Part shown: positions 3,854-10,221 of the stretch, piece by piece
How positions within the stretch are numbered: position 1 is the stretch's first letter
Layout of the letters: each line of letters opens with the position of its first letter
Assembly: GCA_040514145.1 (NCBI GenBank)
Contig: JBEVDF010000037.1
Span: forward strand, 1 to 45,111
DNA length: 45,111 nt
Direction: 5' to 3'
DNA from: Aeromicrobium sp.
GTDB lineage: Bacteria; Actinomycetota; Actinomycetes; Propionibacteriales; Nocardioidaceae
The notes under the pieces: generated by a model
Told to the model about the DNA's origin: nothing
Databases searched by the model: none
What the model saw: the letters and a program-made list of their open reading frames with translations, nothing else
Program-made: the position numbers and the translations under genes

Positions 3854-4432
3854 GTGGGCGCCCGAACCAAGCTTGAAGGCATCCCGGCACCGTTCACGCG
3901 GGCTGTCGAGGAGGTCAAGCGCGCCGTGGCGCGCCCCGAGCTCGAGCTCGGCGAGATGCCGGCTCCGCAGCGCATCGCCCCGTTCGCCCACGCCATGACC
4001 GCCGATGTGGTCGTCGCCGACGCCGAGCTGGGCACCGGACGATTCATCCTGCTGCACGACCCGGCCGGCAACGACGTCTGGAACGGCACGTTCCGGTGCG
4101 TCACGTTCGCCCGGGCCGACATCGAGCAGGAGATGGCCACCGACCCGCTCATCACCCAGGTCGGCTGGAGCTGGCTGACCGACGCGCTCGATGGCGCGGG
4201 GGCCGAGCACACCAACCCCGCCGGCAGCATCACGGTCGTGCGCTCCGAAGGCTTCGGCGCGATGACCGACGACGAGACCGACGCCCAGATCGAGGTGCGC
4301 GCCTCCTGGACGCCGCACGGGGGCCTCGAGGCCCACGCCTCGGCCTGGATGGAGCTCCTCGGCAAGCTCGCCGGCCTGCCGCCCCTGGCACCCGGCGTCG
4401 TCCCCCTCACCCGTAGGCGCACAGCCCGTTGA
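3854..4432 (+). CDS. DUF3000 family protein
   Basis: 'PAPQRIAP', 'GRFILLHDP', 'WSWL', 'EVRASWTP'; typical position divergent from hemE and upstream of rnd; TAAGAT-N6-GTG start. Confidence 0.85.
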   Translation: MGARTKLEGIPAPFTRAVEEVKRAVARPELELGEMPAPQRIAPFAHAMTADVVVADAELGTGRFILLHDPAGNDVWNGTFRCVTFARADIEQEMATDPLITQVGWSWLTDALDGAGAEHTNPAGSITVVRSEGFGAMTDDETDAQIEVRASWTPHGGLEAHASAWMELLGKLAGLPPLAPGVVPLTRRRTAR

Positions 4433-5664
4433 CGAACGAACCCGAAGAGATCACTGACGAGGCGCCCGAGCCCGTCCTCCCCCGACTCGGCCTCCGCGAG
4501 CCGCTCACCCCCGTGGTCGAGACCGACGACGCCCTGGCGCGCGCCTGCGCCGAGATCTCGCTCGGCGAGGGCCCGATCGCCCTCGACGCCGAGCGCGCCT
4601 CGGGCTACCGCTACTCCCAGCGCGCCTACCTCGTGCAGGTCCGCCGTGAGGGTTCGGGCACGTGGCTGATCGACCCGATCGCCTTCCCCGACCTCAGTGA
4701 GCTGAACCTGGCCTTCGGTGACGCGGAGTGGATCCTGCACGCCGCCACCCAGGATCTCCCCTGCCTGGCCGAGATCGGGCTGCGGCCCGCCTCGCTGTTC
4801 GACACCGAGCTCGCCGGCCGGCTGCTGAACCTGCCACGCGTCGGCTTGGCGGCCCTCGTCGAGCACTACCTGGGCATGAGCCTGGCCAAGGAGTTCTCGG
4901 CCGCCGACTGGTCCACCCGGCCGCTGCCCGAGCCGTGGCTGGAGTACGCGGCGCTCGACGTGGAGGTCCTGCTCGAGCTGCGCGAGCTCGTGCTGGCCGA
5001 CCTGGTGGCCGCGGGCAAGGACGGCTGGGCCCGCGAGGAGTTCGACGCGCTGCTGTCGTTCACCGGTCCGCCCGAGCGCAAGGACCCGTGGAGACGCACC
5101 TCCAGCATCCACAAGATCCGCAGCCGTCGCGCCCTCGCGATCGTCCGGGCCCTGTGGCACACCCGCGACGAGATCGCCGCCGACCGCGACATCACGCCGG
5201 GCCGCATCCTGCCCGATGCGTCGATCGTGTCGCTGGCCACGCAGGCGCCCGACTCGCTCAACGCGCTCAAGAACGACCCCACGATGCGCCGCCGCGGCCC
5301 GCGCCGGTTCCTCGACGACTGGTTCGACGCCATCGAGTCGGCGCTCGGCCTGCCCGACGACGAGCTGCCCACCTCGGGCCAGCGCACCGACGGTCCCCCG
5401 CCGCCGCGCGCCTGGGCCGACAAGGACCCGGTCGCCGCCGCCCGACTGGCGCGCGTGCGCGCCGAGGTCACCCGGATCGCCGAGCAGCACAACCTCCCGG
5501 CCGAGAACCTCATCGGTCCGGCCATCGTGCGCGCACTGGCCTGGCAGCCGCCGTCCGACCTCGATCCGGCATCGATCGCCGAGGAGCTGCGCCGTCGCGG
5601 CAGCCGGAACTGGCAGATCGAGCTCGTCGCGGCGCCCATCGCCGCCGCACTCGTCGATCCCTGA
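4429..5664 (+). CDS. rnd: Ribonuclease D (DEDDy 3'-5' exonuclease plus HRDC domain)
   Basis: 'ALDAERASGYRY', 'ILHAATQDL', 'FDTELAG', 'DWSTRPL', 'YAALDVE'; HRDC-like C-terminal half; the TTG start is approximate. Confidence 0.92.
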   Translation: MTNEPEEITDEAPEPVLPRLGLREPLTPVVETDDALARACAEISLGEGPIALDAERASGYRYSQRAYLVQVRREGSGTWLIDPIAFPDLSELNLAFGDAEWILHAATQDLPCLAEIGLRPASLFDTELAGRLLNLPRVGLAALVEHYLGMSLAKEFSAADWSTRPLPEPWLEYAALDVEVLLELRELVLADLVAAGKDGWAREEFDALLSFTGPPERKDPWRRTSSIHKIRSRRALAIVRALWHTRDEIAADRDITPGRILPDASIVSLATQAPDSLNALKNDPTMRRRGPRRFLDDWFDAIESALGLPDDELPTSGQRTDGPPPPRAWADKDPVAAARLARVRAEVTRIAEQHNLPAENLIGPAIVRALAWQPPSDLDPASIAEELRRRGSRNWQIELVAAPIAAALVDP

Positions 5665-5733: not shown

Positions 5734-6324
5734 ATGGCCGACTTCCACAAGCCGTCGTTGCCCGGGGCCGCCGTGTTCGACTCCGTGCCCGACCCGGACG
5801 ACCCGGCGGAGCGAACCGCCGCCGGCCACCGCATCGCCTCCCTGCTGGTCCGTGGGGCGCACGACCGCGCCGACCGCGACCTGATCGACCGGGTGCTGCA
5901 CCTGGCCGACTCCGAGGGCATGGGCGTGATCGCCGAGCTGTGGGCCAAGGCCCCCGCCGAGACCGTGGCGGGCGCCCTCTGGCGGCTCTACGCGCTGCGC
6001 ACCTGGGTGCACCACAACCCGGTCCAGGCGTCGCGCGAGTTCGCCGAGGGCCGCGCCTTCGCCCCGGTGCAGGAGGTCCTCGCCGGTGTCGTCGACCCGC
6101 CGGGACCTCGCGAGGTCGTCGAGCTGGTCGACACCGTCGTGCGGGGCATCGTCGCCGCGGACTTCGACGTCGCACTCGACCGCGCGGCCGCCTTCGCCCA
6201 CATCGTCGGCGTGGGCCGCGGCCAGATGGACGGCGGCGACCCCGCCAGCGCCGCCCGCCTGGTCGACACCGCCCGCCATCTGCGGGCCGCCGCCGAGGCG
6301 GAGCGCCTCGGCGAGCTGCACTGA
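5734..6324 (+). CDS. Conserved actinobacterial hypothetical protein (helical, function unknown)
   Basis: Host-like codon usage and TACGCT-N7-ATG leaderless start. Motif 'ELWAKAPAETVAGALWRLY'; I recall similar proteins being mislabelled as RNA polymerase beta, but this is not RpoB. Confidence 0.75.
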   Translation: MADFHKPSLPGAAVFDSVPDPDDPAERTAAGHRIASLLVRGAHDRADRDLIDRVLHLADSEGMGVIAELWAKAPAETVAGALWRLYALRTWVHHNPVQASREFAEGRAFAPVQEVLAGVVDPPGPREVVELVDTVVRGIVAADFDVALDRAAAFAHIVGVGRGQMDGGDPASAARLVDTARHLRAAAEAERLGELH

Positions 6325-6339
6325 GCCGCTCAGGCCCCG

Positions 6340-6370
6340 ACGCGCCGGCTCGGTGAGTTGTCCGGCGCGT
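6340..6370. terminator. GC-rich hairpin after the 5734-6324 gene
   Basis: ACGCGCCGG (6340-6348) / CCGGCGCGT (6362-6370); no U-tract. Confidence 0.45.
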
Positions 6371-6401
6371 GAGATTGGGTTCTGTCGTCTAAAGTGGTGC
6401 C

Positions 6402-6484
6402 CGCGCCGGGTCGAGGTAGCCCCGGGTCCCAAAATCAGCCGCTACGAGCGGCCACGCGCCGTGAGGCGCTCCCGACCCGGCGCG
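6402..6484 (+). ncRNA. Candidate structured small RNA (multi-way junction, family not recognised)
   Basis: A perfect 12-bp closing stem 6402-6413/6473-6484 encloses hairpins GCCGC-UACGA-GCGGC (6438-6452) and GCGCC-GUGA-GGCGC (6456-6469, GNRA loop). TAAAGT -10-like box at 6390-6395; pyrimidine tail after 6484. Confidence 0.6.
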
Positions 6485-6509
6485 CCCCTTCTTCTCGTGT
6501 CCCGCGCGA

Positions 6510-7478
6510 TCAGCGCGGAGCGAACGTCGTGTACGAGTGCGCCGGTGCCATCAGGGCGTCCAGGGCGGCCGAGTCCTCCGCGGTCGGGGTCCAGCTCGCG
6601 GCGGCCACGTTCGCCGCCACCTGCTCGGGACGCGAGACGCCCGCGATCACCGACGACACGGCCGGTCGCGACGCGAGTCCGCCGATCGCCAGCTCGAGCA
6701 GCGTGATGCCACGCTCATCGGCGAACGCCTGCAGCGCATCGATCCGCTCCCAGTCCGCGTCCTTCCAGCGCGCCCGCTGTCCGGCCAGGCGCGTGCCCGC
6801 CTCGGGCTCGGCATCGCGCGAGTACTTGCCGGTGAGCAGCCCGTAGGCCAGCGGGAAGTACGGGAGCAGGCCCACCCCCAGCTCGAGACACGCCGGCACG
6901 AGCTCGACCTCGGCCGCGGGGTTGTAGAGCGAGTACTCGTTCTGCGCGGTCGCGAAGTGGGCGAGCCCTGCAGTCCGCGAGATCCAGTCGGCGTCGACGA
7001 GCTGCCAAGCGGCGAAGTTCGAGCAGCCGATCGCGCGGACCTTGCCCTCGTCGACCAGCTCGGTCAACGCGCCGAGCGTCTCCTCGACGGGAGTTCCCGG
7101 ATCCGGGGTGTGCAGCTGGTAGAGGTCGATGACGTCGGTGCCGAGCCGGCGCAGGCTGGCCTCGGCCGCACGGCGGACGTAGGCCGCGCTCCCCCGTCGT
7201 CCGCCGTCGTCGCCGTTGCGCCCCTGCATGTCCATCCCGAACTTCGTCGCGATGACCACCTCGTCGCGGCGACCCTGCAACGCGGCACCGAGGAGCGTCT
7301 CGCTCTCGCCCAGGGAGTACGTGTCAGCGGTGTCGAAGAACCGCACCCCGTGCTCGAACGCGGCGTCGACGACGGCGGTCACCTGGTCACCGTCGATGCG
7401 CGCCCCGAACGCGTTGCAGCCGATCCCGACGGGGCCGACGTCGATACCGCTCGTTCCCAGGACATGTCGTGTGCTCAC
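6510..7478 (-). CDS. Aldo/keto reductase
   Basis: 'FFDTADTYS', 'IATKFG', 'SLRRLGTDVIDLYQLH', 'GKVRAIGCSNF', 'PYFPLAYGLLTGKY'; TACGGT-N6-GTG start on the minus strand. Confidence 0.93.
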   Translation of the reverse strand: MSTRHVLGTSGIDVGPVGIGCNAFGARIDGDQVTAVVDAAFEHGVRFFDTADTYSLGESETLLGAALQGRRDEVVIATKFGMDMQGRNGDDGGRRGSAAYVRRAAEASLRRLGTDVIDLYQLHTPDPGTPVEETLGALTELVDEGKVRAIGCSNFAAWQLVDADWISRTAGLAHFATAQNEYSLYNPAAEVELVPACLELGVGLLPYFPLAYGLLTGKYSRDAEPEAGTRLAGQRARWKDADWERIDALQAFADERGITLLELAIGGLASRPAVSSVIAGVSRPEQVAANVAAASWTPTAEDSAALDALMAPAHSYTTFAPR

Positions 7479-7509
7479 GCACCCACCGTAGGGCGGATAC
7501 ACTCGGCGG

Positions 7510-7854
7510 GTGATCCGGACCACGCACGCCACGCGACGCCTCGTCGCGGCCCTGGCTGCCGTGCTGCTCGCCGGCATGCTCGGACTGGGTGCGCTCGCCG
7601 GGTTCTCCGGCTCCGAACGGCGTGCCCCGGGCACGACGATGTCGGCCGGGGACGAGCCCGCGCAGCCGCGGGTCACGGTGGCCAAGGCCACCTCGGACGA
7701 CCATTCCGTGTCGGTCGACCTGCCCGCGGGCATGCTCGACACCCCCCTGTCGCTGATCGCGGCAGCCCTCATGGCGCTCGCCGCGGCGCTGGTCGCCGCA
7801 CAGGTGGGCCGGGCGGTTCCCGCCCCGGCCGGGCGCGCTCCGCCGCTGGCCTGA
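7510..7854 (+). CDS. apdA: ApdA-like ribosome-arrest leader peptide upstream of secDF
   Basis: N-terminal signal/TM segment, a second hydrophobic stretch, and C-terminal 'GRAPPLA*' (RAPP motif), ending 66 nt before secDF; TACACT-N6-GTG start. Confidence 0.72.
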   Translation: MIRTTHATRRLVAALAAVLLAGMLGLGALAGFSGSERRAPGTTMSAGDEPAQPRVTVAKATSDDHSVSVDLPAGMLDTPLSLIAAALMALAAALVAAQVGRAVPAPAGRAPPLA

Positions 7855-7920
7855 CCGACTCCGGTCCGTCTTCGCCACCCCTCGTACTTCGCCGTCCCCG
7901 GCCCCCATCGAAAGTCACCC

Positions 7921-10221
7921 ATGTCCTCCAAGACCAACTTCTGGCGCGGCCTCATCTGCCTCGTCGTGATCGTCGGCTCGATCGCGATCGCCTTCACCAT
8001 GAAGCCCAACCTGGGCCTCGACCTGCGCGGCGGCACGCAGCTCACGCTCGAGACCAAGTCCACCGACCGCGTCGAGGCCAACGCCGAGTCCACCGACCGC
8101 GCGCTCGAGGTGCTGCGTGGCCGTGTCGACGCCCTCGGTGTCTCCGAGCCCACGCTGGCGCGCTCGGGTGACAACCGGATCATCGTCGAGCTGCCGAACG
8201 TGCAGGACCCGAAGAAGGCCGCCGAGGTCATCGGCCAGACGGCCACCCTCGAGTTCCGCGAGGTCAAGGCGCCCGCGGACGAGAACACCAAGCCCGCCAA
8301 GGGCGAGGTCGTCCTCCCCGACGAGCAGGGCCAGAGAATCCTCCTCGGCCCGGTCGCCTTCGACGGCAACGGGATCAGCGACGCGAACGCCGCGCTGCCG
8401 CAGCAGGGCCTCGGCGAGTGGGTCGTCAATGTCGAGTTCAACAGCACCGGCCGCGGGCCCTGGCGCGACCTGGTGAACTCGGCGTGCGCCAACACCGCCG
8501 CCGGCAACCGGATCGCGATCATCCTCGACAACGAGGTCATCTCGTCGCCGGGCATCGTTCCCGAGCTGTGCCAGTCCGGTGGCGGCAGCTCGACCAGCAT
8601 CACCGGTGACTTCACCCAGTCCAGCGCCGAGGAGCTCGCCGCGCTGATCAAGGGCGGCGCCCTGCCGGTCCCCGTGGAGATCATCGACCAGCGCACGGTC
8701 GGCCCGACGCTCGGCCAGGCCGCCATCGACGACTCCATCCAGGCCTCGATCATCGGCCTGTTCCTCACCGGACTCTTCATCATCTTCATCTACCGCGCGA
8801 CCGGCGTCATGGCCACGATCGCGCTGTGCGTCTACGCACTCATCTCCTACGCCGCACTGGTGCTGCTGGGGGCCACGCTGACCCTGCCGGGCCTGGCGGG
8901 CTTCGTGCTCGCGATCGGCCTGGCGATCGACGCCAACGTGCTGGTCTACGAACGAGCGCGCGAGGAATATCACGAGAATCCGAAGTCCGGCCTGCTCTCG
9001 GCCCTGACCACCGGCTTCTCGAAGGCCTGGTCCGCGATCATCGACTCCAACGTCACGACGATCCTGGCCGCGCTGCTGCTGTTCTTCCTGTCGGCCGGTC
9101 CGGTCAAGGGCTTCGGCATCACCCTGACCATCGGCGTCATCGCCTCGATGTTCTCCGCCCTGGTCGTGGCCCGCTGGCTCACCGAGTGGCTGGTCAAGCG
9201 CGGCTGGGTCCGCTCGCACCCGCAGGTCAGCGGCATCGCCGGCATCTCCGGCGTGCGCCGCTGGTTGAACGAGCACGGTCCGTATCTCGTCCGCCGGGCG
9301 GGCATGTGGGTCGTCGTCTCCCTGGGCATCGCCATGGTCGCGATCGGCGGCATCGTGGTGCGCGAGCTCAACCTCGGTGTCGAGTTCGCCGGTGGCCGCC
9401 AGATCGAGTACTCGACCGCCGAGGAGGTCACCCCCGACCAGGCCCGTGAGGCCGTGGCCGACGCCGGTTTCCCCGAGGCGGTCGTGCAGTCCTCGTCCGG
9501 CGACGGCGGCGAGAACATCTCGGTGCGCCTGCCCAGGATCAACGAGGACCAGGCCGAGCAGGTGCGCGCCTCGATCGCCGAGGTCGGCGGCGAGACCGTC
9601 CAGGTCCGCTCCGACACGATCGACCCCACGCTGGGCAAGGAGCTGCGCGACAAGGCGATCCTGGCGTTCCTCATCGCGGTGGCCGCGCAGATGGCCTACC
9701 TGGCCTGGCGCTTCCGCTGGACGTGGGCCGGGGCCGCCATCGTGTCGATGGCCTCGGTGGTGCTCGCCGTCGTGGGCGTCTTCGCCTGGTGGGGCAAGCC
9801 GATCGACGGCGTGTTCCTCGCGGCCATCCTGTCCATCATCGGCCTGGCCGTGAACGACTCGATCGTCGTCCTCGACCGCATCCGAGAACGCACCCGAACG
9901 GCCGACATCCCCTTGCGGGAGATGGTCAACGAGGCGATCCTGTCGACCCTGCCACGAACGATCAACACCGCCATGGGTGCCACGTTCATCCTGGCCGCGC
10001 TGATGGTGCTGGGCGGCGACTCGCTGCGCGACTTCTCGATCGCGGTGCTGCTCGGCCTGCTGTTCGGCCACTTCTCCACCGTGTTCACGGCGGCCACGCT
10101 GGGCGTGCTGCTGGAGGAGCGCTGGCCGTACAACCCGGACAAGGATCCGCGTCACAAGGCCGATCCGTACTCGCACATCCTCGACGGGCGCGGCACGCCC
10201 GACGAGGGCGCGGTGGTCTGA
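7921..10221 (+). CDS. secDF: Fused protein translocase subunit SecDF
   Basis: 'LGLDLRGG', 'RVDALGVSEP', 'GALPVP', 'AIDANVLVYER', 'LGVEFAGG', 'VNDSIVVLDRIRE', 'TLPRTINT'; no yajC adjacent. Confidence 0.95.
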   Translation: MSSKTNFWRGLICLVVIVGSIAIAFTMKPNLGLDLRGGTQLTLETKSTDRVEANAESTDRALEVLRGRVDALGVSEPTLARSGDNRIIVELPNVQDPKKAAEVIGQTATLEFREVKAPADENTKPAKGEVVLPDEQGQRILLGPVAFDGNGISDANAALPQQGLGEWVVNVEFNSTGRGPWRDLVNSACANTAAGNRIAIILDNEVISSPGIVPELCQSGGGSSTSITGDFTQSSAEELAALIKGGALPVPVEIIDQRTVGPTLGQAAIDDSIQASIIGLFLTGLFIIFIYRATGVMATIALCVYALISYAALVLLGATLTLPGLAGFVLAIGLAIDANVLVYERAREEYHENPKSGLLSALTTGFSKAWSAIIDSNVTTILAALLLFFLSAGPVKGFGITLTIGVIASMFSALVVARWLTEWLVKRGWVRSHPQVSGIAGISGVRRWLNEHGPYLVRRAGMWVVVSLGIAMVAIGGIVVRELNLGVEFAGGRQIEYSTAEEVTPDQAREAVADAGFPEAVVQSSSGDGGENISVRLPRINEDQAEQVRASIAEVGGETVQVRSDTIDPTLGKELRDKAILAFLIAVAAQMAYLAWRFRWTWAGAAIVSMASVVLAVVGVFAWWGKPIDGVFLAAILSIIGLAVNDSIVVLDRIRERTRTADIPLREMVNEAILSTLPRTINTAMGATFILAALMVLGGDSLRDFSIAVLLGLLFGHFSTVFTAATLGVLLEERWPYNPDKDPRHKADPYSHILDGRGTPDEGAVV

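Follow-up and report, generated by a model that had tools for sequence, protein, structure and literature searches.

The Aeromicrobium sp. contig JBEVDF010000037.1 (45,111 nucleotides, analysed at full length and called the window below) carries a gene for an uncharacterised 196-aa protein, followed by a short segment with the appearance of a structured RNA. The locus raises the question of whether this segment is an RNA gene in its own right, whether it is new, and whether, as the original prediction had it, RNA and protein form a single module. The features concerned all lie on the forward strand:

4429..5664, + strand: RNase D gene, local context outside the module
5734..6324, + strand: gene for the 196-aa all-helical companion protein, with conserved RP, ELW and LWRLYxLR motifs
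6390..6395, + strand: candidate -10 element TAAAGT (TAnnnT) of a primary-sigma-type promoter of the RNA itself, placed by motif
6402..6484, + strand: small RNA core of the short (scr2952-like) type; model match 6393-6487, 84-91 bits
6402..6419, + strand: 5' strand of P1, 12 bp and then the GG and AG pairs; A6414 and U6417 are unpaired (covariation)
6420..6437, + strand: junction J1/2, near-invariant CCCC(G/C)GG-YYY-CA plus a variable linker of 5-8 nt (column frequencies)
6438..6452, + strand: P2 hairpin, a YNCGA pentaloop on 5 bp (four of the five pairs compensatory in the wider set)
6457..6468, + strand: P3 hairpin, 4 bp capped by a GNGA tetraloop; sequence nearly invariant, with C-G, U-G or U-A as the closing pair
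6469..6484, + strand: 3' strand of P1 (covariation)
6485..6495, + strand: pyrimidine tail, likely the 3' end region, without a strong terminator in the window copy

The elements from which the prediction had been assembled (the TAAAGT box, the 12-bp stem, the GUGA hairpin, CCCGGG, the tail and the open reading frame) are all where it placed them: the perfect stem pairs 6402-6413 with 6473-6484 and begins six bases after TAAAGT, and CCCGGG occupies 6421-6426. We predict the 5' end of the RNA at or just before 6402, because the Streptomyces ambofaciens homologue described below begins in P1. The predicted folding energy of the region is -51.7 kcal/mol (z -2.03), and 8 of 200 shuffles fold equally well; at a G+C content of 75%, a single-sequence fold is on its own weak evidence, modestly above chance, and we accepted the structure on the covariation among homologues instead. 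The window RNA had no match in Rfam 15, either at the gathering threshold or at E≤10, and ARAGORN found no tRNA. A generic scanner saw neither a sigma-70 promoter nor a terminator; the -35 region of this copy is weak, and in Streptomyces copies a terminator hairpin was found further downstream. On the opposite strand, an aldo/keto reductase frame (6513-7475, minus strand; region 6510-8789) is open far upstream without a stop, so that simple ORF callers stretch it to 759 aa.

The conserved fold is a three-way junction consisting of a P1 of about 16 bp, an 18-nt J1/2, P2 with its YNCGA pentaloop and P3 with its GNGA loop. In an alignment of 78 diverse sequences, 93.9% of cells are paired, changes on both sides occur in 15 of the 24 pairs, and the covariation score is 0.314, compared with 0.153 for shuffled and at most 0.091 for slid alignments; in this set the search pattern had imposed P2 and P3 in advance. 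A second set of 45 more distant sequences, found by and fitted to the model, shows changes on both sides in 20 of the 24 pairs, including four of the five in P2 and one of the four in P3, whose motif across the family is GCC-GNGA-GGC. The suggestion that similar elements follow this gene family in other Actinobacteria was borne out: the structure is conserved downstream of the protein homologues, with strong covariation.

The alignment also changes some details of the structure as it was first drawn. The hairpin described as UACG-type is present, with a 5-bp stem and a five-base UACGA loop (consensus YNCGA, positions 1-3 variable in the wider set) rather than a UNCG tetraloop, and the GNRA (GUGA) hairpin is likewise real, with 4 bp in the conserved structure. 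The AGGUAG segment had been taken to be unpaired and is in fact mostly paired: G6415 and G6416 pair with C6472 and C6471, and A6418 and G6419 with U6470 and C6469, all four pairs showing compensatory changes. The single-stranded junction is therefore 6420-6437 only. An alternative proposed by RNAalifold, in which J1/2 pairs with the P3 region, was ruled out, since the closing pair of P3 shifts from C-G to U-A while J1/2 stays constant.

The family comes in two types. In the long (scr0792-like) type, the short P2 is replaced by an extended stem, about 25 nt longer, that has its own covariation and a conserved internal loop (12 sequences), while the J1/2 sequence is kept; J1/2 is likely a recognition surface. 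Across both types the RNA measures about 85-115 nt. With one model, built mainly from distant members, the window scores 84 bits and the 20 long copies tested all reach 48-59 bits. Some copies vary further. An RNA gene between lsr2 and clpC has its P2 segment duplicated (L235:1525-1638) and shares a bulged A in P2 with another copy (L236:1534-1632), and one genome carries two long-type copies 1.2 kb apart whose P2 tips are extended further still (L228:1471-1599 and 2645-2780). At eight linked loci (L042, L044, L045, L049 and L051-L054), a further hairpin lies 5' of P1, after the -10 box, and makes the RNA about 25 nt longer.

Upstream sequences point to transcription from promoters belonging to the RNA. 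We counted motifs at 168 non-identical loci, 115 linked to the protein gene and 53 free. TAnnnT lies just upstream of 80 of the 115 linked copies (shuffles: mean 10, maximum 20) and barely exceeds chance in the free copies, with 14 against a mean of 5.8 and a maximum of 13. The motif GGAAH-N17-19-GTT precedes 31 of the 53 free copies and 18 of the 115 linked ones, where less than one is expected, and is found in 19 of the 20 long-type copies. It agrees, in both free and long-type copies, with the SigR consensus GGAAT-N18-19-GTT as given in PMC9205884. Many copies thus appear, from these motifs, to carry SigR/SigH-type promoters, and the GGAAC-CGTTG form of the long type may belong to a related ECF sigma factor. 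The window copy has the -10 box alone, without a SigR-type -35/-10 motif.

The position of the RNA relative to the protein gene is also flexible. Among 80 pattern-found loci with full flanks, the protein lies 42-478 nt from the pattern match in 65, in tandem with the RNA in 54, convergent in 8 and divergent in 3, so that the RNA is inverted or divergent in 11 of the 65. The other 15 have no nearby protein (four of these have a short flank). The RNA also stands free beside unrelated genes, and genomes hold 1-3 copies of it; at one locus a divergent tmRNA gene lies about 110 nt from it (L242:1020-1592). We are all but certain that the element is a real, independent RNA. Covariation, its own promoter motif, the flips in orientation and discrete transcripts of Streptomyces homologues bear out the proposal of an independently transcribed RNA, at about 85-95 nt.

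The link to these transcripts runs through a Streptomyces-like genus (g38), in which 34 loci from 32 genomes all have the short RNA next to a helD-like gene. The two are co-directional in 33 and inverted in one (L267), and a malic enzyme gene lies on the opposite side of the RNA in 32. We take SCO2951 of S. coelicolor to be the malic enzyme as well. SCO2952 is a HelD (PMC8655204), and scr2952 is located between sco2951 and sco2952 on the forward strand, with a length of 84 nt (PMC3765725) or of 92 nt, extending to 138 (PMC4681348). The identification of scr2952 as a family member rests on its locus, its size and the L267-type inversion; L267 has the inverted arrangement that the forward-strand label of scr2952 requires. 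A forward start site 50 nt upstream of scr2952 is also listed, which could reflect processing or a second promoter. For S. ambofaciens, RNA-seq gave a 95-nt transcript, sRNA #12 (PMC8388888, Table S3), whose sequence equals two of our copies (L212 and L213), which begins in P1 and which is reduced in a pirA mutant (log2 -1.7 at 48 h). The same paper gives the expression of scr2952 as confirmed and states that this RNA is in Rfam, contrary to our scan of g38-type copies with Rfam 15, which returned nothing. Both scr2952 and sRNA #12 belong to the same short-type family as the window RNA; they adjoin helD rather than the 196-aa gene, and are known as Streptomyces transcripts of unknown function.

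The long type has a counterpart in scr0792 of S. coelicolor, which in stationary phase was enriched 712-fold on RNA polymerase by RIP-seq and measures about 85 nt by Northern blot (PMC11077062). The letters in its published structure figure closely resemble, by eye, three long-type copies (L216, L371 and L374): about 8 of 105 positions differ from L216, including one compensatory P1 pair, and over a 16-nt piece there is one mismatch (chance 0.01). It has the same P1, J1/2 and P3 core as the window RNA, so that one model scores both; it differs in its P2, which is extended by about 25 nt, and in having an ECF-type promoter only. That the window RNA belongs to one family with scr2952 and scr0792 we regard as very probable. 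Within the portions of PMC11077062 considered here, scr0792 is described as a single low-abundance RNA, without family, paralogue or partner protein; the RNA-polymerase-associated RNAs of S. coelicolor are two, scr3559 and scr0792, scr2952 not being named; and low-abundance RNAs are proposed to act in ribonucleoprotein complexes. The same portions report no such RNA on the RNA polymerase of Mycobacterium smegmatis or M. tuberculosis, which says nothing about whether these species carry the RNA.

The novelty expected for the RNA therefore holds in part: an Rfam match is absent, and two S. coelicolor members already have names, one of them found on RNA polymerase. In searches mainly of openly readable text and few supplements, we found no literature that links scr2952 with scr0792 or that gives a consensus structure, a class-wide range, a promoter or a companion protein, and no mention of six core sequence motifs of the RNA.

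We examined the distribution of RNA and protein in 150 genomes, one draw from the class. The RNA model matches 104 of them, and the protein profile 43, reduced to 42 by dropping one marginal match (E 6e-4); unpublished genomes G071 and G082 are among the 150, and neither carries a claim alone. In a phylum-wide draw of 150 genomes, the RNA was found in nine, all of the window's class, and in none of the other 139; a further two genomes of the same class were missed. All 41 sampled genomes of genus g38 carry the RNA, often with a second, long copy, and other carriers include Arthrobacter, Microbacterium, Rothia, Cellulomonas, Kribbella, Gordonia, Pseudonocardia and Geodermatophilus. An RNA-only pattern run on 3 of the 64 parts of the genome collection returned 120 stretches, which corresponds to an estimated 3700 or so overall, and Rfam scans of 20 and of 8 distant loci gave no relevant match. 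One full copy (L341:2473-2572, 66 bits) lies in an unannotated gap of the Rhodococcus fascians D188 plasmid NZ_CP015237. RNA and protein also occur together on two IMG/VR contigs, the only two of 59 loose-pattern viral matches that score well, and one unannotated 5.6-kb record was found in the phage set; we read all three as host fragments and rejected carriage by phages.

The companion protein belongs to a family with 443 representatives at 50% clustering. Searches of Pfam, NCBIfam, PADLOC and PDB sequences gave no family match, and we found no named Atlas cluster for it. The name 'RNA polymerase subunit beta' given by Atlas to clusters of the protein is automatic and lacks Pfam support, and we rejected it; no RNA polymerase family appeared in the Pfam, NCBIfam or PDB sequence searches. 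AlphaFold confidently predicts an all-helical structure for it (pLDDT 90.6, pTM 0.82). Foldseek returned no clear fold match (best E 0.68), which does not make the fold new, and structure comparison (VIA) gave generic bundles, at best with Z 7.1 and an rmsd of 3.1 over 92 residues. Four-helix bundles such as Csp3, Avd and the S23-like Xcc0516 share a similar helical arrangement over about 90-110 residues (Z 5.6-7.1; Avd 5.7-5.9), with scores within the helical-bundle background, identities of 4-14% and no shared motifs seen, and we do not claim homology. The protein is acidic (net charge -10, median pI 5.3) and keeps arginines at six positions (6, 53, 84, 89, 150 and 191). One longer homologue has an anti-sigma RskA domain, and other fusions are scattered and single; we read all of them, including RskA, as neighbour read-through. 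At four Microbacterium loci (L095, L100, L114 and L129), a gene of the anti-sigma RskA type precedes the protein gene, and in a single record of 522 aa (P0271) the two are fused.

All 42 protein-bearing genomes carry the RNA, with the two less than 500 nt apart in 28 genomes, 2.2-3.0 kb apart in three and unlinked in 11. The co-occurrence has a Fisher p of 1.6e-8 in the 150 genomes, a value that is overstated because kin genomes are not independent. Conversely, 62 of the 104 RNA-bearing genomes have no solid protein match, including all those sampled from the Streptomyces-like family. Among the 58 loci with the best protein matches, the window included, 56 carry the RNA by pattern and one more (L006) by model, and the last stops 26 nt past the stop codon (unpublished G046, G069 and G071 contribute to these loci, and none carries a claim alone). 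The 67 upstream neighbours scanned fall into more than 20 unrelated families, among them HrpA-type DUF3418, FTR1, RskA, enoyl-CoA hydratase and glyoxalase; the gene pair moves as a cassette while the flanking genes differ. RNase D, which had been suggested as a 3'-trimming enzyme of the module, neighbours the pair in 29 of 138 loci, almost all of them Aeromicrobium-like, and drops out as a component. The proposed protein-RNA module survives as a frequent association and fails as an obligate pairing. The 196-aa protein is likely an accessory rather than an obligate partner, and that it is a functional partner of the RNA at all seems probable to us.

What the RNA does is best approached through scr0792. 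This relative is reported to co-precipitate with RNA polymerase, so a role of the family in tuning transcription during stress is likely, probably together with the neighbouring protein, and our leading reading, held tentatively, is a stress-induced RNA that binds RNA polymerase and is unlike 6S or Ms1. Stress or stationary-phase sigma factors would switch the RNA on, and the RNA would bind RNA polymerase, with the invariant J1/2 and P3 as a putative docking surface and the long, variable P1 as a possible helical handle. Binding might store, recycle or redirect the core enzyme. The short type of the window would engage RNA polymerase as well, and the helical protein, in those lineages that have it, could bind the RNA as an accessory and stabilise or load it. 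Counting against this reading, association with RNA polymerase is reported for the long paralogue scr0792 alone and not for scr2952, the type closest to the window, and RIP-seq reports association, not direct binding or effect; furthermore, the protein is acidic, has no RNA near its gene in 11 of its 42 genomes and is absent from 62 of the 104 RNA-bearing ones, among them every sampled genome of the Streptomyces-like family in which polymerase binding was observed, and the window copy has no SigR-type motif. The fuller version, in which this is a third, class-wide kind of RNA that regulates RNA polymerase, wired to the SigR/SigH stress response in most Actinomycetes and joined in a ribonucleoprotein with a dedicated helical protein of unassigned fold in Micrococcales, Nocardioidaceae and their allies, is at present doubtful.

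Several other readings have to be weighed against RNA polymerase binding as a family trait. The RNA could instead serve some other protein as a scaffold or decoy, the 196-aa protein where that is present and another one elsewhere; polymerase binding would then be peculiar to the long type, through its extended P2. We consider this unlikely but a serious competitor: within the portions of PMC11077062 considered, the long type alone is reported on RNA polymerase, its P2 has a conserved and covarying internal loop of its own, and the gene pair travels as a cassette whose protein keeps six arginine positions. However, J1/2 and P3 are invariant in both types, which indicates one shared ligand, and the genes seen beside the RNA included none for a protein shared by all RNA-bearing genomes. 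The single-stranded, conserved, C-rich J1/2 and the stress promoters of many copies would also suit a base-pairing stress sRNA whose J1/2 masks G-rich ribosome-binding sites of mRNAs, as in 6C RNA. The small, widely conserved 6C RNA of actinomycetes likewise has C-rich single-stranded parts, which block the G-rich ribosome-binding sites of mRNAs; in 6C RNA they are loops on two hairpins, whereas in the window RNA the C run lies in a junction within the long P1. Against such a role, which we consider improbable, P3 and the junction spacing are kept across orders, beyond what a seed needs, and no conserved complement to 16S rRNA exists, only 7-8 nt at differing places in five of five genomes. 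In PMC8388888, which mentions gene regulation by 6C, the S. ambofaciens copy has one target prediction, at an FDR of 0.92.

The pentaloop and the invariant GG invite comparison with the tRNA elbow, the GG of J1/2 docking on a T-loop-like YNCGA and the RNA engaging enzymes of the RNase D, HrpA and HelD types, and the neighbours in different lineages (RNase D, HrpA-type DUF3418, HelD, tmRNA) would fit. But the long type lacks the pentaloop, loop positions 1-3 vary, ARAGORN finds nothing and every neighbour is lineage-restricted, and we regard such mimicry as highly improbable; tRNA, tmRNA and tRNA-like Y RNA were themselves rejected on the blank ARAGORN and Rfam results and the missing pentaloop. 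Least probable of all, to the point of being nearly negligible, is a cis element of the protein gene (terminator or 3' UTR), a mobile repeat or a type III antitoxin. The RNA does lie just downstream on the same strand in 54 of the 80 pattern-found loci, yet it has its own promoter, strand flips, free copies, 1-3 copies per genome and discrete Streptomyces transcripts. For type III toxin-antitoxin systems, we found a single RNA unit rather than repeats, usually downstream, protein-free in 62 of 104 genomes, and PADLOC was blank for the protein.

The known polymerase-binding RNAs differ from the window RNA in size and structure. Ms1 and 6S form a long hairpin with a central bubble and measure at least about 160-230 nt, whereas the window RNA has a core of 83 nt and a three-way junction. 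In stationary phase, both Ms1 (scr3559, MTS2823) and 6S are found in association with RNA polymerase (PMC9130861, PMC11077062). The Rfam models of Ms1, 6S and 6C were matched neither by the window RNA nor by the distant loci scanned.

Antibiotic producers belong to the class sampled here, as do many bacteria from soil or living with hosts. That about 70% of the genomes drawn from it share an RNA whose core is near-invariant, and that this RNA has no Rfam match, marks a large annotation gap. Two orphan Streptomyces RNAs become one family, and a pull-down result on RNA polymerase from one species becomes a class-wide, testable hypothesis. The family offers a structure and two natural subtypes between which domains can be swapped, and it comes with candidates for the controlling sigma factor and for the protein partner. 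For a ribonucleoprotein such as that proposed for low-abundance RNAs like scr0792, the linked protein is a concrete candidate, though absent from the Streptomyces-like genomes sampled. If the fuller version of the leading reading is correct, the family would regulate RNA polymerase without being related to 6S or Ms1 and at less than half their length, and RNA and protein together would be the bacterial counterpart of a transcription regulator made of both.

The 11 unlinked protein genes have settings of their own. With filters off, no RNA was detected beside any of them at E<0.1, three of the stretches being short or at a contig end. In five genomes of one family (L342 and L344-L347), the protein gene, with no RNA nearby, stands beside a CIRCE-like inverted repeat recognised by eye, which is probably the promoter of a divergent groES. 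Four others (L348-L351) follow what appears by eye to be the end of miaB, with a miaA-like stretch near L348; these miaB/miaA-like neighbours are tRNA-modification genes.
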